Under the pieces are notes generated by a model. The model saw nothing but the letters and a program-made list of their open reading frames with translations. It had not been told where the DNA came from and made no database searches. Shown piece by piece: positions 1,051-28,715 of a stretch of DNA of 33,922 nucleotides (position 1 is the first letter of the stretch; each line of letters begins with the position of its first letter). A program made the position numbers and the translations under genes. This DNA is from a virus (Duplodnaviria; Heunggongvirae; Uroviricota; Caudoviricetes). The stretch lies in IMG/VR virus record IMGVR_UViG_2630968639_000008. One strand, 5' to 3'.

Positions 1051-1722
1051 TCAGCGACCAATCACCACAACCTGACCACCATCCCCTTCGTCTGCCGTGC
1101 TGATCTCCTGAGAAACCACGCGTGACCCCACGCGCATTTCCCCGTACAGAACAGGCAGAACATTGCCCTGGGCAACCATGTTATCCAGTGAGGAGAAATA
1201 GGTGTTCTGCTTACCGTTATCCGTTGTCTGTGTACGGGGAGTTCTGGCTTTCGGTGCCAGCATCTGCGCCACACCACCGAGCACCATACTGGCACCGAGA
1301 GAAAACAGGATGCCGGTCATACCACCGGCCCCAATGGCTGCCCCCCATGCTGCAAGGGTGGCTCCGGCGGTAAAGAATGATCCGGCAATGGCGGCAGCCC
1401 CCAGGACAATCTGGAATACGCCACCTGACTTGGCCCCGGCGACTCTGGGAACAATATGAATCACAGCGCCATCAGGCAGAGTCTCATGTAACTGCGCCGT
1501 TAACCCGGACGTGCTGACGTCCCGCCCGGCAATCCGTACCTGATACCAGCCGTCGCTCAGTTTCTGACGAAACGCCGGGAGCTGTGTGGCCAGTGCCCGG
1601 ATGGCTTCAGCCCCCGTTTTCACACGAAGGTCGATGCGGCGACCAAATCGTTGTAAATCCCCGTAAAGGCAGATGCGCGCCATGCCCGGTGACGCCAGAG
1701 GGAGTGTGTGCGTCGCTGCCAT
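1051..1722 (-). CDS. I: Tail assembly protein I
   Basis: 223-aa ORF with the same length and recalled sequence as lambda gpI; sits between K and J in lambda order. Confidence 0.9.
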   Translation of the reverse strand: MAATHTLPLASPGMARICLYGDLQRFGRRIDLRVKTGAEAIRALATQLPAFRQKLSDGWYQVRIAGRDVSTSGLTAQLHETLPDGAVIHIVPRVAGAKSGGVFQIVLGAAAIAGSFFTAGATLAAWGAAIGAGGMTGILFSLGASMVLGGVAQMLAPKARTPRTQTTDNGKQNTYFSSLDNMVAQGNVLPVLYGEMRVGSRVVSQEISTADEGDGGQVVVIGR

Positions 1723-3396: not shown

Positions 3397-5972
3397 CGTC
3401 CACCTCCGGAGAACAGGCCACCATCACGCATCTGTGTCTGAATTTCATCACGGGCACCCTTGCGGGCCATGTCATACACTGCCTTCATCATCTGTGGACC
3501 TGGCAGACCATTCGTACCGTCGTTCTGAATCACCACGTGATTGTTCTGATTAAAATTAATGCCTTCAGCCCGCCGCATCTGCGCCGGACTTCCGGCACCG
3601 CCCACATAACCACCTTCCGCATAGCCCCGCATCAGGCGGTACAGGTTGCCGACACCAATCCGGCTGGTTGCCTCCTTCGTGAAGACAAATTCACCACGGT
3701 GAACAATCCCCGCTGGCTCATATTTGCCGCCGGTTCCCGTAAATCCCCCGGTCGCAAAATGGAATTTCGCCGCAGCTGCCTGAATGGCTGTACCGCCTGA
3801 CGCGGATGCGCCGCCACCAACAGCCCCGCCAATGGCGCTGCCGATACTCCCGACAATCCCCACCATTGCCTGCTTAAGCAGAATTTCTGTCATCATGGAC
3901 AGCACGGAACGGGTGAAGCTGCGCCAGTTCTGCTCACTGCCGGTCAGCATCGCCGCCATATTCTGTGCAATACCATCAAAGGTCTGCGTGGCAGCACTTT
4001 TAACCTGCGACATACTGTCCGTGGCGCTCTCTTCCCACTCACTCCAGCCGGACTTCAGGCCTGCCATCCAGCTCCCGCGAAGCTGGTCTTCAGCCGCCCA
4101 GGTCTTTTTCTGCTCTGACATGACGTTATTCAGCGCCAGCGGATTATCGCCATACTGTTCCTTCAGGCGCTGTTCCGTGGCTTCCCGTTCTGCCTGCCGG
4201 TCAGTCAGCCCCCGGCTTTTCGCATCAATGGCGGCCCGTTTTGCCCGTTGCTGCTGTGCGAATTTATCCGCCTGCTGCGCCAGCGCGTTCAGGCGCTCCT
4301 GATACGTAACCTTGTCGCCAAGTGCAGCCAGCTGGCGTTTGTACTCCAGCGTCTCATCTTTATGCGCCAGCAGGGATTTCTCCTGTGCAGACAGCTGGCG
4401 ACGTTGCGCCGCCTCCTCCAGTACCGCGAACTGACTCTCCGCCTTCCACAAATCCCGGAGCTGCTGGCTGATTTTCTCATTTGCTCCGGCATGCCTCTCC
4501 AGCGTCCGGAGTTCAGCCTGAAGCGTCAGCAGGGCAGCATGAGCACTGTCTTCCTGACGATCGCCCGCAGACACCTTCACGCCGGACTGTTTCGGCTTTT
4601 TCAGCGTCGCTTCATAATCCTTTTTCGCTGCCGCCATCAGCGTGTTGTAATCTGCCTGCAGGATTTTTCCGTCTTTCAGTGCCTTGTTCAGTTCTTCCTG
4701 ACGGGCGGTATATTTCTCCAGCGGAGTCTGCAGACGTTCGTAAGCCTTCTGCGCCTCTTCGGTATATTTCAGCCGTGATGCCTCAGACTCAGCACGATCT
4801 TTTGCTGCCATCTCACTGGCCTTTTCAAGATCTGCCTGCAATGTGGCGGCTGAAAGACCAAGTTGCGCATTCGCCCTGTCCTCCCATGCGCCACGGAGAT
4901 TGGCAAGAAATGCTGAGGTTTTACCACGCCGGTGGCTCCGGCTCTGATACCACTGCCATTTCTTGTCCGCTTCATCAAAAGCCTTTTCTGCTTTCTCCAG
5001 CATTTCCCGGGCAGTGTCCGGGCGACCAATATCCAGCACCGAATCCCACATGGATTTAAATGCCCGTGCTGTCTTATCTGCCCAGGTCTCCAGCGTGCCC
5101 ATGTTATCTTTCAGGCGGCGGGTCTGGTCATCAAACCCTTTCCTTGCGGCCTCGTTCGCCGCCTGCAATGCCCCGGCTTCATCGCCGGAACGCTGCAACT
5201 GAGCAACATACGCAATCTGCTCCGCTGTCACGTTATGGAACTGGCGCGCCATCGCCGTCAGCCCCGACGTCGGGTCTGTGGTCAGCTTCCCGAAGGCTTC
5301 AGCAACCTTGTCCACCTCCACGCCCGATGCAGAGGAGAAACGCGCCACACTCTGGCTGATCGCCTCAAACTGCTCACCACCACGCACACCGGCATTCACC
5401 AGCGCCGTCAGAGACTCGCTGGTCTGGTTAAACGTCAGCCCTGCCGCCTGCCCGGCTCTGGACAGGACCAGCATACGATCTGCCGTCAGTCCCGCCTGAT
5501 TGCCGGAAAGGACCAGCGTTTTGTTGAAATCGGACAGGGTTGAGTTGCCCTGATACCAGGCATACGCCAGCGCACCGGTCGCCACCGCCAGCGAGGTGGC
5601 CCCCACCATCGGCAGGGTGATCGCACCGGCAAGCCCCCTGAACATGGGGATCATCCCGCCGAAGGAGTCCTTAACCTGACCACCCTGTTGCAGCAGGATC
5701 AGCCACGGACTTTGCCCGCCTGCAAGCTGCGTGGCCACGTCGGTGAACTGTGCAGGCAGCATACGCATGGCGGCTTTATACTGCCCGACGGAAATCCCCG
5801 CTTTCTGTGCAGCCAGCGCCTGTCGGCTCAGCGACTGTTCAACGACTGCCGCTGTTTTTTTCGCATCACTTTCCGTACCGGAAAAATGACGCCTGACTCT
5901 GGCCATCTGCTCGTCAAATCTGGCCGCATCCAGACTCAAATCAACGACCAGATCGCCTACCGGTTCAGCCAT
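3393..5972 (-). CDS. H: Tail tape measure protein H
   Basis: 859-aa ORF, coiled-coil rich with a Gly-rich C-terminal region; N- and C-terminal stretches match recalled lambda H. Numerous antisense ORFs inside it are treated as spurious. Confidence 0.9.
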   Translation of the reverse strand: MAEPVGDLVVDLSLDAARFDEQMARVRRHFSGTESDAKKTAAVVEQSLSRQALAAQKAGISVGQYKAAMRMLPAQFTDVATQLAGGQSPWLILLQQGGQVKDSFGGMIPMFRGLAGAITLPMVGATSLAVATGALAYAWYQGNSTLSDFNKTLVLSGNQAGLTADRMLVLSRAGQAAGLTFNQTSESLTALVNAGVRGGEQFEAISQSVARFSSASGVEVDKVAEAFGKLTTDPTSGLTAMARQFHNVTAEQIAYVAQLQRSGDEAGALQAANEAARKGFDDQTRRLKDNMGTLETWADKTARAFKSMWDSVLDIGRPDTAREMLEKAEKAFDEADKKWQWYQSRSHRRGKTSAFLANLRGAWEDRANAQLGLSAATLQADLEKASEMAAKDRAESEASRLKYTEEAQKAYERLQTPLEKYTARQEELNKALKDGKILQADYNTLMAAAKKDYEATLKKPKQSGVKVSAGDRQEDSAHAALLTLQAELRTLERHAGANEKISQQLRDLWKAESQFAVLEEAAQRRQLSAQEKSLLAHKDETLEYKRQLAALGDKVTYQERLNALAQQADKFAQQQRAKRAAIDAKSRGLTDRQAEREATEQRLKEQYGDNPLALNNVMSEQKKTWAAEDQLRGSWMAGLKSGWSEWEESATDSMSQVKSAATQTFDGIAQNMAAMLTGSEQNWRSFTRSVLSMMTEILLKQAMVGIVGSIGSAIGGAVGGGASASGGTAIQAAAAKFHFATGGFTGTGGKYEPAGIVHRGEFVFTKEATSRIGVGNLYRLMRGYAEGGYVGGAGSPAQMRRAEGINFNQNNHVVIQNDGTNGLPGPQMMKAVYDMARKGARDEIQTQMRDGGLFSGGGR

Positions 5973-10776: not shown

Positions 10777-12076
10777 TTACACTGGTGTGTTCAGCAAATC
10801 GTTAACGGCATCAGATGCCGGGTTACCTGCAGCCAGCGGTGCCGGTGCCCCCTGCATCAGACGATCCAGCGCAGTGTCACTGCGCGCCTGTGCACTCTGT
10901 GGTGCTGCGGCCAGAATGCGGCGGGCCGTTTCCACGGTCATACCGGGGGTTTCTGCCAGCACGCGGGCCTGTTCTTCGCGTCCGTGAGCCTCCTCACAGT
11001 TGAGGATCCCCATAATGCGGCTGTTTTCTGCCGCAACCGCTGCGGTGATCTGCGCGTTCACGTCCGGCTGCGCCGCGCTGGCGTTTTCGCCCTCCGTCGC
11101 TGGCACCACGTCAGTAACGTCAGCCTACGAAGCAGTGGCTGAAACAGTTGTTGATTGAGTCTCTTTGGTCATTCGCCCTCCTGAGAGACGGGATTTACGT
11201 GCATCCAGTGCATCACGCATGACGGTGATCGCATCGGTGCTGTTAACAAGTTCATCAGCCAGTCCGGCATCAATGGCCTCCTGACCGCTGTACACTGCAG
11301 CCTCGGTATCCAGCACAGCCTGCACGGACAGGCCGGTATATGCCGACACCTTCTGCGCAAACATCCGGCGGGTTGCATCCATCCGGGACTGCAGTGTCTC
11401 CCGGACGTCATCCGGAAGATGGCTGTAGGGGTTGCCATCCACCTTATGGCTGCCGCTGTAAATCAGCGTGATTTCCACGCCCTGTTTCTCCAGCGCAGCA
11501 CCGTAATTACTGTGAGCCATCATGACGCCGATGGAGCCTGTCCGGGCGGTCTGCGTGACCAGACGCCGGGAGGCGGCGCTGGCAAGCAGCTGACCTGCAC
11601 TGCAGTTCATGTCGTTGGCCAGCGCCCATACCGGTTTTATGTCTCGCACACGGGCGATGATGTCAGCACAGTCAAATGCTCCCGCCACCATCCCGCCCGG
11701 TGTGTCCATATCGAGCAGAATGCCGTCCACCATCGGATCGCTGGCAGCCTGTTGCAGACGGGCGATAATGCCGTTGTAACCGGTCATTCCCGAATACGGC
11801 TGCAGCGCCCGCGTCCGGCTGACCAGCGTACCGGACACCGGCAGCACGGCGATGCCGTTCATGACCTGATAACTGCGGGCCTGTCGTGGTCCGTCATCAT
11901 CACCGGATAACGCCAGCGCCGCGGGTGCCTCTCCGGCAGTCAGGCTGTCGCCGGACACCGCATCCGTCAGGCGACTGATCCCAAGCTGGCCTGCAAGCGC
12001 ACAAAAGAAAATCCGCGCATAGGCGGGTTCAAGCATCAGCGGCTCATTAAAAGCCATGCTGGCAATATGCGGGAGA

Positions 12077-12096
<20 letters not shown>
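10777..12096 (-). pseudogene. C: Prohead protease/scaffold gene C with nested Nu3, interrupted by a single in-frame TAG at 11127..11125
   Basis: GTG start at 12096..12094 preceded by GGAGGAG; the frame is otherwise continuous to the stop at 10777 (439 codons, lambda C length). Reading across the TAG gives ...TVSATAS*ADVTDVVPATEGE... Uninterrupted segments are 11125..12096 and 10777..11109. Would be functional only with amber suppression. Confidence 0.75.
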
Positions 12097-15777
<3,681 letters not shown>

Positions 15778-17268: not shown

Positions 17269-17562
17269 ATGAAAAAAATGTTGTTTTCTGCCGCTCTGGC
17301 AATGCTTATTACAGGATGTGCTCAACAGACGTTTACTGTTGGAAACAAACCTACAGCAGTAACACCAAAGGAAACCATCACCCATCATTTCTTCGTTTCG
17401 GGAATTGGACAGGAGAAAACTGTTGATGCAGCCAAAATTTGTGGCGGCGCAGAAAATGTTGTTAAAACAGAAACCCAGCAAACATTCGTAAATGGATTTC
17501 TCGGTTTTATTACTTTAGGCATTTATACTCCGCTGGAAGCGCGTGTGTATTGCTCACAATAA
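17269..17562 (+). CDS. bor: Bor lipoprotein (serum-resistance type lysogenic-conversion protein)
   Basis: Track ORF trimmed to ATG at 17269: MKKMLFSAALAMLITGCAQQ... has a signal peptide and lipobox (LITGC); 97 aa; antisense to the lysis genes as in lambda. Confidence 0.85.
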   Translation: MKKMLFSAALAMLITGCAQQTFTVGNKPTAVTPKETITHHFFVSGIGQEKTVDAAKICGGAENVVKTETQQTFVNGFLGFITLGIYTPLEARVYCSQ

Positions 17563-19336: not shown

Positions 19337-20434
19337 ATGAAAAAATTAACAGTGGCAATTTCTGCTGTAGCTGCATCAGTACTGATGGCGATGTCTGCTC
19401 AGGCAGCTGAAATTTATAATAAAGACAGTAACAAGCTGGATCTGTACGGGAAAGTTAATGCTAAGCACTACTTCTCCTCTAATGATGCAGATGATGGTGA
19501 TACTACTTATGCCCGTCTTGGCTTCAAAGGTGAAACCCAAATCAACGATCAACTGACTGGTTTCGGTCAGTGGGAATATGAATTCAAAGGCAACCGCGCT
19601 GAATCTCAAGGTTCCTCCAAAGATAAAACCCGTCTTGCCTTCGCTGGCCTGAAATTCGGTGACTACGGCTCCATCGATTACGGCCGTAACTACGGTGTAG
19701 CATACGACATCGGTGCGTGGACTGACGTCCTGCCAGAATTCGGTGGTGACACTTGGACTCAAACCGACGTGTTCATGACTCAACGTGCAACTGGTGTTGC
19801 AACCTATCGTAACAACGACTTCTTTGGTCTGGTTGATGGTCTGAATTTTGCTGCTCAGTACCAAGGCAAAAACGATCGTAGCGATTTCGATAACTACACT
19901 GAAGGTAACGGTGATGGCTTCGGTTTCTCTGCTACCTATGAATACGAAGGATTCGGTATCGGTGCAACTTATGCGAAATCTGATCGTACCGACACTCAAG
20001 TTAATGCAGGGAAAGTTCTTCCTGAAGTATTTGCTTCCGGTAAAAATGCAGAAGTTTGGGCCGCAGGTCTGAAATATGACGCTAACAACATTTACCTGGC
20101 CACTACCTATTCTGAAACCCAGAATATGACTGTATTTGCTGATCACTTCGTTGCTAATAAAGCCCAAAACTTCGAAGCTGTTGCACAATATCAGTTCGAT
20201 TTCGGTCTGCGTCCGTCCGTTGCTTACCTGCAATCTAAAGGTAAGGATCTTGGAGTATGGGGCGATCAGGACTTAGTCAAATATGTTGATGTAGGTGCAA
20301 CCTATTACTTCAACAAAAATATGTCTACTTTCGTTGATTACAAAATCAACCTGCTTGACAAAAATGACTTCACTAAAGCACTCGGTGTAAGCACTGATGA
20401 CATCGTTGCTGTAGGTCTGGTTTACCAGTTCTAA
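19337..20434 (+). CDS. OmpC/OmpF-family general porin (prophage NmpC/Lc-type), apparently intact
   Basis: 365 aa from ATG 19337 (track ORF starts upstream): signal peptide [29 protein letters not shown], porin beta-barrel hallmarks, C-terminal ...VGLVYQF; long AT-rich promoter region upstream; antisense to Q and S as in DLP12 nmpC. Confidence 0.85.
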
Positions 20435-22718: not shown

Positions 22719-23120
22719 TTATTTTAACTCATAGATCAGACAGTCAACGATTTCTAAACCATTTACCATAGAATTAGAAACGCGAACTTTACCATCGTTG
22801 ACTCTAGCAAATCCTTTTAACATTTTATAAATAAAAGCTGAATCCCCCTTAGCCTCAATTGCTTCTAATGGTATCGGCTTATACTTTTTTGATATGCTAT
22901 TTCTATTTATCTCACTGATTTTTCTATATATTTCTGCCGGTCCACGTTCTGAGAAGTCACTGATAACTAAAATATATCTCCAAGATAGATCTGGGTAATA
23001 AAACCACATTGCAGCATCAATAGTTAAATTCTGTAACTTGAGTTTTTTTAATAAAAATTGACCTGAGAATTCCATATCTTTTGTCAACTCTCTGCCGATT
23101 ACCAGTGTGCTTTTACCCAT
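22719..23120 (-). CDS. Hypothetical protein, downstream partner of the HEPN-like gene (overlapping, translationally coupled)
   Basis: 133-aa ORF; ATG at 23120 with GGAG 9 nt upstream; overlaps the upstream gene by 22 nt; AT-rich codon usage; no motif recognised. Confidence 0.5.
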   Translation of the reverse strand: MGKSTLVIGRELTKDMEFSGQFLLKKLKLQNLTIDAAMWFYYPDLSWRYILVISDFSERGPAEIYRKISEINRNSISKKYKPIPLEAIEAKGDSAFIYKMLKGFARVNDGKVRVSNSMVNGLEIVDCLIYELK

Positions 23121-23515
23121 TTCAAAACTCCAGAATTTTGGTCACCTACAGCATCAAACAATTGTTCGGCCATAGCTTTACTTATGTTATTGTCGTATCT
23201 AAATTGCTCGCTCCAGTCTTTAACGACCGACCAGTTAATCTCCAACGAAACATCATTTTTTGCGTCAGCAATCAAAATTTGATGTAAGTTGGCAATTTTG
23301 AGAAGTTGCGACAAATCATGAGTATATGAATCATTTACGACTTTTTTGTTTGGAAACTCATGTTGTAAAAATGACTTGGCAATACAGGCCTTCAATGCAC
23401 ATTCAACTGCATACCCACAAAGATAATATGCACCATGAAAAAAGCCATGATCAAGCAAGCATTTGGCCTCATTAAGCCTAGTGTCAGATAATGCTTCAAG
23501 GTCGTTTTTATTCAT
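23099..23515 (-). CDS. HEPN-domain-like protein (candidate toxin or abortive-infection nuclease)
   Basis: 138-aa ORF; helical pattern GAYYLCGYAVECALKACIAKSF, THDLSQLL and C-terminal RYDNN resemble HEPN four-helix-bundle proteins; AT-rich; TATAAT sits immediately upstream of the ATG. Confidence 0.55.
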   Translation of the reverse strand: MNKNDLEALSDTRLNEAKCLLDHGFFHGAYYLCGYAVECALKACIAKSFLQHEFPNKKVVNDSYTHDLSQLLKIANLHQILIADAKNDVSLEINWSVVKDWSEQFRYDNNISKAMAEQLFDAVGDQNSGVLKWVKAHW

Positions 23516-23979: not shown

Positions 23980-24474
23980 TCATTTCCAATTGCAAGACTG
24001 TGAAATTTTTTCCACAACCTTATCAATCTCAGACAAGTCAAACTCAACTACTTGCATAGTTGATCCATAAGGTTCAAACCCAAAAATAGCTTTTTTATGC
24101 TTAGCCAAGGTCTTTATAAATTGTATTGGTTGTGGAGCAAATGCAGAATCACCGCCTTCCCCACCACCCCAAACACTCTTGACCGGCTTTCCGCCATCTA
24201 ACCGCACTGTAATTCTTGGGTTGTCCGAACCCATATAATCATTGAATGATAAATAGGCATCTGTTTTGTTATCACTACAACGCAACACCAGTGAAGTTGC
24301 ACGATCAGTACCTGCTTTGTTATATGAATCTGGTGATAAATTAAGAGCCACAAAGTCAGTCTGGTCAGTCATTTTATTTATCTCAGACTTTGTTATCCAC
24401 GGCCCTAACTTCTCTACACCAGCATTTGCTGTAAACGAGGCACTTATGACAAAGGCTAAAATAAATTTTCTCAT
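23980..24474 (-). CDS. Hypothetical secreted/periplasmic protein (moron)
   Basis: 164-aa ORF with a signal peptide (MRKFILAFVISASFTANA/GVEK), AGGAGA RBS 8 nt upstream, own terminator; AT-rich. Confidence 0.6.
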   Translation of the reverse strand: MRKFILAFVISASFTANAGVEKLGPWITKSEINKMTDQTDFVALNLSPDSYNKAGTDRATSLVLRCSDNKTDAYLSFNDYMGSDNPRITVRLDGGKPVKSVWGGGEGGDSAFAPQPIQFIKTLAKHKKAIFGFEPYGSTMQVVEFDLSEIDKVVEKISQSCNWK

Positions 24475-24620
24475 AACCCTATCTCCTTGGCTTCAAAGAA
24501 CTAAATATTATCAAGTCTCTTGCCACTAGAAAACCCACTTTATTTCCAAACTCTGATGGCATTCCTGAAAATCCGCTTCATACTCACTTGCCCCGCCCTA
24601 TCATCCTGAGTAGCTAACCG

Positions 24621-24794
24621 TTAAACAAACGTTCGCCAGACCTTACCATCAATGACCAGGATTCCTGCACGCGCCATTTTAGCTGCTGCCTGATTTATGC
24701 AGGTTACTGTCACACCTGTTGCCGCAGCAACGTCCTGCGCACAGAAGCTCTTATGCGTCCCCAGGTAATAAATAATTGCCTCTTTGCCCGTCAT
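24621..24794 (-). pseudogene. ren: Truncated ren-like gene (57 codons)
   Basis: ATG at 24794 overlapping the P stop; hand translation MTGKEAIIYYLGTHKSFCAQDVAAATGVTVTCINQAAAKMARAGILVIDGKVWRTFV then stop; matches the N-terminal part of lambda Ren as I recall it (full length about 96 aa). Below the track length cutoff. Confidence 0.5.
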
Positions 24795-26504: not shown

Positions 26505-27050
26505 TCATATTGCCCCCAGCATGGTGGTGACCATCGCCATCAGTGGACCAGCCAAATCCGGGTCCACACGAAACATCGACACAATGCCTTCACTCATCTC
26601 CTTCAGTTTCTGGTGGCGTGGTGCGTTGAGAATGACAGCCTGTTTTGCCTCACTGAGTTCCTTTTCCATTTCAGCCAGCCGAGCCATGTAGCTATCCTGC
26701 TCAACCAGGTGGCCGCGATATTCCAGCGGTAGTACCGCCAGAATTGCCGGGGTCAGTTCACGCACGTTATTTCGGTATTTTTCAGAATCGAATTTGTTAT
26801 CGAGGAAGCGGAACAGCTTCTGGCGTGCACGGCTGACATCATCAGGGAAATCGATGGTGCCGCCGCCCTGCTCCCGATACTCATTCACAATGAGTGCGGC
26901 AACAACATCCTGATTATCTGCAGCCGACCAGGCGCGAACGGCATCACGGATTTTTTCGTGGCCTGGCGCCTGTTTTGTTTGAGAACGATTTATCACCGCA
27001 GTCGGGCTAAATCCGCTAGTCTGTTGGTATGTAAGTGGTTGCATAGTCAT
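26505..27050 (-). CDS. Hypothetical protein in the cII position (possibly YdaT-family)
   Basis: 181-aa ORF between cro and O on the early-right strand; not lambda CII-like in size or sequence; family assignment is a tentative recollection. Confidence 0.4.
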   Translation of the reverse strand: MTMQPLTYQQTSGFSPTAVINRSQTKQAPGHEKIRDAVRAWSAADNQDVVAALIVNEYREQGGGTIDFPDDVSRARQKLFRFLDNKFDSEKYRNNVRELTPAILAVLPLEYRGHLVEQDSYMARLAEMEKELSEAKQAVILNAPRHQKLKEMSEGIVSMFRVDPDLAGPLMAMVTTMLGAI

Positions 27051-28334: not shown

Positions 28335-28715
28335 ATGAGAAAAATCCTAATCGCTGCCATGATGGCATCTCTATTGGCTGGGTGTGCTTCTTCAGGCAAC
28401 CAGCAACTCAAAAATGAAACTGAAACTAGTGTCCAGTCTAAACTTCAGGAAGGTAAAACAACCAAGAATGAGGTTAAATCTTACTTTGGTTCTCCTGATG
28501 CTGTTTCATATACTGACAGTGGAAACGAGATCTGGAAGTACGCCTTTGCAAAAGTAAAAGTTAATGGCACCACTTTTATTCCATTCTATGGATTATTCCA
28601 TAATGGAACGAACGGTACGAAAAAAGAACTTACTATTCTTTTTAACGATGACACGATTAAGAAATACACAATGTCAGAAACCCAAATAAACTCGAAATCA
28701 GGTTGGGCTGACTGA
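28335..28715 (+). CDS. Hypothetical lipoprotein downstream of cI (rex-position moron)
   Basis: 126 aa; signal peptide and lipobox (LLAGC); AT-rich; same strand as cI; followed by a terminator; mid-region resembles a BamE/SmpA_OmlA-like fold only loosely. Confidence 0.6.
   Translation: MRKILIAAMMASLLAGCASSGNQQLKNETETSVQSKLQEGKTTKNEVKSYFGSPDAVSYTDSGNEIWKYAFAKVKVNGTTFIPFYGLFHNGTNGTKKELTILFNDDTIKKYTMSETQINSKSGWAD

Follow-up and report, generated by a model that had tools for sequence, protein, structure and literature searches.

The head protease gpC and the scaffold protein Nu3 of phage lambda are encoded in one and the same reading frame: C (J02459, 4418..5737) runs for 439 codons from a GTG start, and nu3 (5132..5737) begins at an ATG nested at codon 239 of C, within the gene order B-C-D-E. 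This overlap, described by Shaw and Murialdo in 1980, is said to be a classic case of nested genes, and Medina et al. reportedly dealt with gpC as the protease in 2010 and with gpNu3 in 2011. Amber mutations in lambda C/Nu3 are expected to leave proheads absent or aberrant in sup0 hosts. Both genes are essential in lambda, since the efficiency of plating dropped below 2e-7 upon CRISPRi knock-down (PMC10695390). Polymerisation of E takes place on an initiator made up of the portal protein B, the protease C and the scaffold Nu3, and interactions of C with Nu3, of Nu3 with itself, of Nu3 with B and of Nu3 with E have been reported (PMC3224144).

Here we describe a C/Nu3 locus in a lambda-type prophage, contained in a DNA stretch of 33,922 nucleotides that was analysed as a whole and is referred to below as the window. 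The locus shares with lambda the 439 codons, the GTG start, the nested ATG at codon 239 and the B-C-D-E order, but differs in having TAG for CAG at codon 324, so that neither full-length product is possible. Its lesion, a CAG>TAG change affecting an essential head gene, is of the kind seen in the classical lambda amber (sus) mutants in C/Nu3, from which it is distinguished as a natural allele that is fixed in a wild E. coli clone and lies in a non-lambda backbone. The cryptic lambdoid prophages DLP12, Rac and Qin are also comparable, because they too are resident elements with an inactivating lesion in an essential morphogenesis gene, and the likeness extends to a second pseudogene (ren), to IS elements at or in the element of relatives and to retained cargo. 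However, in comparison with these K-12 prophages, decay is at a much earlier stage here.

The C/Nu3 gene and its amber codon

The gene aligned with lambda C over 1320/1320 bases without gaps, with 29 differing bases (97.8% nucleotide identity); besides the TAG, 28 bases differed, with an amino-acid change in 8 cases. A Peptidase_S49 domain (Pfam accession number, PF01343) was found at residues 150-297 (E 6e-44), and SppA structures (PDB chains), which were the sole solved relatives, matched residues 81-298 (E 1e-21). The neighboring genes, identified from the ORF map and from the RefSeq annotation of identical loci, were the portal gene B (12077-13678) on one side and the D and E homologues on the other. 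The ATG of Nu3 was conserved with that of lambda (lambda 5132) and was preceded by a Shine-Dalgarno-like GGGAG. Judged by its sequence, this is a lambda C/Nu3 pseudogene that has every feature of the family except an open frame. The features of the locus are as follows.

10777..12096, minus strand: C homologue, pseudogene, from GTG 12096 to TAA 10779..10777, with one TAG inside
11125..12096, minus strand: truncated gpC frame, 323 aa, with the whole protease domain kept
10777..11382, minus strand: nested Nu3 scaffold frame, with its ATG at C codon 239 (window 11382); corresponds to lambda nu3 5132..5737
11125..11127, minus strand: in-frame TAG, C codon 324 and Nu3 codon 86; CAG (Gln) in lambda and close relatives
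10777..11124, minus strand: untranslated remnant of 115 sense codons plus TAA, the shared gpC/Nu3 C-terminal part

When 10777-12096 of the minus strand was translated, we obtained 439 codons plus a stop, with a single internal stop that was preceded by ...TTVSATAS and followed by ADVTDVVPATEGE.... A first-pass annotation of this DNA had described a conserved C frame of 439 codons from GTG 12096 to the stop at 10777, interrupted by a TAG at 11127..11125 of the minus strand; the frame was borne out by the translation and the gap-free lambda alignment, and the location of the TAG by the translation. Its designation of the TAG as codon 369 was wrong, because (12096-11127)/3 gives 323 codons ahead of the TAG, which is thus codon 324. 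A mechanically called ORF of 368 aa (11125-12231, minus strand) extends from GTG 12231, which falls in the portal gene region, to the TAG, and a count from this GTG probably accounts for the earlier number. The sense codon that the same annotation had expected for lambda, CAG (Gln), was confirmed by comparison with J02459. Codon 324 was also CAG in PhiR70_1, a free phage, and in E. coli G5, which carries the nearest intact chromosomal copy. The presence of CAG in lambda and in the nearest intact relatives points to a single C>T transition as the origin of the TAG. A Dcm hotspot was considered as the source of the C>T change and rejected, the ancestral context being GCAGG and not CCWGG. Scanning for promoters and terminators around the C gene yielded nothing above chance.

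The stop leaves 323 of the 439 residues of gpC, including the complete S49 protease domain, and 85 of the 201 residues of Nu3, of which 58% is lost; the C-terminal 115 residues shared by the two proteins are missing from both. It had been proposed that the stop truncates gpC and Nu3 alike and removes the C-terminal scaffold part, and this part of the claim stood, but the extent of the loss had been underestimated: as the TAG is codon 324 and not 369, the truncation is larger than first implied, with 115 sense codons lost. The remnant located 3′ of the TAG was conserved, with one amino-acid change and two synonymous changes relative to lambda.

Carriers of the TAG allele and state of the prophage

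To determine the distribution of the allele, we used a 59-mer centred on the TAG as a query; homologues were present in 3145 of 5426 complete E. coli genomes (4425 places). The exact 59-mer with TAG occurred in only two of these 3145 genomes, STEC409 (from a diarrhoeal patient in Shanghai, China) and ETEC1746 (from pig faeces in Belgium), and 2412 records were one base off; the TAG is a specific mutation and not a chance occurrence. The first-pass annotation had named related functional phages with the same stop as evidence that would speak against a defect, but none was found: the TAG allele was present in 0 of 72 sequenced phage records containing the region, and a 37-mer with TAG had no match among the IMG/VR contigs scanned. 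When the variable base of the 37-mer was replaced by N, at least 120 IMG/VR loci were detected, with C at this position in all matches listed.

The whole C gene was 100% identical between the window and the complete RefSeq genomes of STEC409 and ETEC1746, in both of which the PGAP annotation reads S49 family peptidase, pseudogene, "internal stop". The pseudogene is thus already known from RefSeq, and the phenomenon is likewise a recognised one. Beyond the complete genomes, the exact 323-aa product was found on 87 contigs from NCBI and Logan, separate SRA-run assemblies among them; in the index of the assembly collection it occurred in 119 blocks. A 110-aa ORF called just 3′ of the TAG (GTG 11109) was found in its exact form on 192 contigs.

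Comparison of the window with STEC409 revealed 5 SNPs in 32,096 bases, and comparison with ETEC1746 revealed one SNP and one single-base deletion, together with an IS66 insertion of ETEC1746 that is absent from the window; the window is therefore neither of these two records. Codon 117 of tail gene L (window position 2718) is AGC (Ser) in the window, in contrast to AAC (Asn) in STEC409, ETEC1746 and two further carriers (L008 and L009). This SNP is private to the strain of the window or its sub-branch, confirming that the window represents one more genome, independent of the others. Over 13-21 kb, five more carriers (L008-L012) matched the window at 99.98-100% identity, and all sampled carriers were at least 99.98% identical to it over 13-32 kb. 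In addition, STEC409 and ETEC1746 share the left junction (dsdC|torI) and an IS1 located ~800 bp past the tail-fibre assembly gene. The high identity of the carriers, the common junction and the common IS1 indicate one recently diverged lineage of prophage plus host. On these sequence comparisons, the TAG allele appears to be passed on vertically within one E. coli lineage, being neither recurrent nor phage-borne. The TAG SNP can be used as a marker for one E. coli clone, and the prophage should be scored as head-assembly defective, not as intact and inducible, in roughly 90-190 carrier assemblies.

From the recombination genes through J, no gene of the window other than C and ren contained an internal stop. 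Two loci outside the head region are referred to below.

24526-24794, minus strand: ren homologue, pseudogene, directly downstream of P; has a frameshift, and its nominal frame contains two internal stops
17269-17562, plus strand: iss/bor lipoprotein gene, intact in the window and in STEC409

The ren gene, which is non-essential in lambda, is likewise annotated as a pseudogene in STEC409 and ETEC1746. Because all genes of the window but C and ren are intact, decay of the prophage is not far advanced, and the mutation is recent in evolutionary terms. Among seven members of the lineage, we found 10 distinct coding SNPs, all of which were nonsynonymous, and one intergenic SNP. Tail gene I (1051-1623, minus strand) carries a frameshift (C5>C4 at window position 1402) in ETEC1746 (L002) and in GCA_036681845.1 (L008), but not in the window. 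In ETEC1746, an IS66-family element (tnpA/tnpB/tnpC; L002 11823-14828) is inserted in iss/bor at a point corresponding to window position ~17393. The ren lesion, the frameshift in tail gene I, the IS66 insertion in bor and the nonsynonymous SNPs are signs of relaxed constraint. The variants within the lineage, which are small in number, fit unconstrained drift after inactivation and fit very recent divergence equally well. An apparent shortening of tail gene K in L009 (199 versus 247 aa) was dismissed, because the DNA was identical to that of the window and the difference was due to the start chosen by the gene caller.

Predicted functional consequence of the stop and competing explanations

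Loss of 58% of Nu3 and of the entire part of gpC that is homologous to the scaffold should abolish normal prohead assembly. Late transcription that is antiterminated by Q resists Rho-dependent polarity, and expression of D, E and the tail genes should thus continue in the TAG prophage, which should still be capable of lysis and of making tails. We found no residue-level mapping of capsid binding in the lost Nu3/gpC segment in the open literature. By analogy with other nested protease-scaffold genes, and given the essentiality of the gene, the lost 115 residues should be indispensable, and the prophage is most likely unable to build proheads or to yield infectious particles alone. The sequence evidence agrees with the head-assembly defect that the first-pass annotation had predicted for a non-suppressing host.

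We propose that a spontaneous C>T change in a lambda-type prophage turned codon 324 of C/Nu3 from CAG (Gln324) into TAG and that the mutation was then passed on vertically within one E. coli lineage. Translation of C would end after 323 residues, with the SppA-like protease domain kept and the C-terminal 115 residues gone, and translation of Nu3 would end after 85 of 201 residues. Proheads would not be built and no infectious particles would be made unaided, and the prophage would stay in the chromosome as a resident, slowly decaying element with its cargo (porin and Iss/Bor) intact. To this reading, a loss-of-function C>T mutation in a decaying prophage, inherited in one lineage and presumed to abolish head assembly, we assign a probability of about 0.9. 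The TAG is a case of ordinary early prophage decay, not of recoding, a split gene or a laboratory allele, and it illustrates how such decay begins, with a single nonsense mutation in a lambdoid genome that is complete in other respects.

Positive selection for the TAG is unlikely. It would require that a prophage unable to assemble heads is "grounded", with no risk of productive induction or spread and with its cargo kept, or that the element yields free tails, and both the intact state of the other structural, lysis and cargo genes of the window and the spread of the clone (at least 87 contigs, several countries and hosts) are compatible with this. However, the holin, lysozyme and Rz genes are also intact, and induction would still lyse the cell, leaving little gain for the host. 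The frameshift in tail gene I of two members and the nonsynonymous nature of 10/10 coding SNPs argue for drift rather than for maintenance of the tail, and a single neutral mutation that hitch-hiked with a successful clone accounts for the data just as well. We regard as very unlikely the specific case of a selected "grounding" amber in which induction would release complete lambda-type tails (J and side fibres), similar to F-type tailocins, or in which the cargo would be kept without phage spread.

The C gene would be functional if the UAG were decoded by a suppressor tRNA of the phage or the host, or by efficient programmed readthrough. The conserved frame 3′ of the TAG would agree with decoding, but is equally expected for a recent mutation. 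Suppressor alleles (supE, supF and supD) were looked for in complete relatives, supE being read directly in STEC409 only. ARAGORN detected no tRNA genes in the 33.9-kb window. In the glnX-glnV-metU-glnW-glnU cluster of STEC409, both tRNA-Gln(CUG) genes have the wild-type CTG anticodon, so supE is absent from this strain. The supF-type tyrT sequence had no exact match in any complete genome, and the only match of the supD-type serU sequence was DSM 498, a K-12-type strain. The supE allele occurred in 155 records, and among the matches listed 60/60 look like K-12 laboratory derivatives. Furthermore, the stop is limited to one clone and absent from the sequenced phages, and basal readthrough of UAG in E. 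coli is far under the need for a protein that acts as a stoichiometric scaffold. Dependence on an amber suppressor tRNA, which the first-pass annotation had offered as an alternative to a head-assembly defect, is disfavoured by the lack of tRNA genes in the window and of supE, supF and supD in STEC409, and we consider decoding highly improbable. STEC409 and ETEC1746 contain one copy of the C gene each, and therefore have no co-resident prophage to complement the defect.

It is just as hard to credit that the gene is purposely split into a truncated protease and a separately initiated C-terminal fragment that cooperate. The 110-aa ORF starting at GTG 11109 would be a suitable fragment, and its listing by gene callers, in the exact form on 192 contigs, lends some substance to this idea. 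Yet the pairing of the Shine-Dalgarno sequence with the anti-Shine-Dalgarno sequence, which amounted to -12.0 kcal/mol for the C start, -6.9 kcal/mol for Nu3 and -5.2 kcal/mol for D, was no better than -3.1 kcal/mol for any in-frame ATG, GTG or TTG after the TAG. Such an arrangement occurred in no phage or other prophage that we examined, and it would leave the N-terminal 85 residues of Nu3 still discontinuous with the rest of the protein.

A sequencing or assembly error at a true CAG codon, also raised by the first-pass annotation, merits hardly any weight: the TAG is one base off the consensus, but the identical allele was present in two complete genomes that were sequenced independently and differ in country and host, as well as in other assemblies of separate runs in NCBI and Logan (87 contigs altogether), and the site lies outside any homopolymer. 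The occurrence of the same allele in independent genomes and assemblies excludes this explanation. Finally, the first-pass annotation had also named a laboratory amber allele as an alternative. The notion of such an allele (a lambda Cam/Nu3am marker in an engineered lysogen), although lambda head-gene ambers are classical laboratory markers, has a negligible probability and was rejected, in view of 28 further mismatches of the gene to lambda J02459, immunity and replication modules that are not those of lambda, the position of the prophage next to dsdC and not at attB-lambda, and its carriage by STEC from a diarrhoeal patient and ETEC from a pig.

Junctions, cargo and other genes of the prophage

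The prophage adjoins dsdC, and torI, a KplE1-type excisionase gene, is located at that end. The two ends were found at the following positions.

L006 10132-10516 and L014 7211-7595: left junction, dsdC/torI
L007 5269-8482 (STEC409) and L002 39127-41320 (ETEC1746): IS1 region at the tail-fibre end

At the tail-fibre end, a truncated htrE comes after IS1 in STEC409, and other IS fragments lie beyond the same IS1 in ETEC1746. Because htrE is far from dsdC in K-12, this arrangement suggests an IS1-mediated rearrangement at the tail-fibre end of the STEC409 prophage. No integrase was annotated at either prophage end in the stretches read from STEC409 and ETEC1746, and an IS1-mediated rearrangement may have separated the integrase from the prophage.

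Several modules of the window are of the DLP12 type, namely ybcN-ninE-ybcO-rusA-ylcG-quuD and essD-rrrD-rzpD, in addition to the porin and Iss/Bor. The porin gene (19337-20434, plus strand) is full length (Pfam Porin_1, E 5e-157) and lies between the Q antiterminator and holin genes on the opposite strand, as does nmpC in the cryptic prophage DLP12; it carries different nonsynonymous SNPs in two members of the lineage. A 138-aa HEPN-domain protein is encoded at 23099-23515 (minus strand), and the 3′ end of its gene overlaps the start of a 133-aa ORF of the nin region (22719-23120, minus strand) that had no Pfam match; the two could form a toxin-antitoxin or defence pair. The product of 23980-24474 (minus strand) resembles VasI/TagO, with a Pfam match right at the threshold, and that of 28335-28715 (plus strand), encoded between the repressor gene and kil, is a BamE-like lipoprotein just under it. 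In place of lambda cII, the prophage encodes a protein with a YdaT toxin domain (26505-27044, minus strand).
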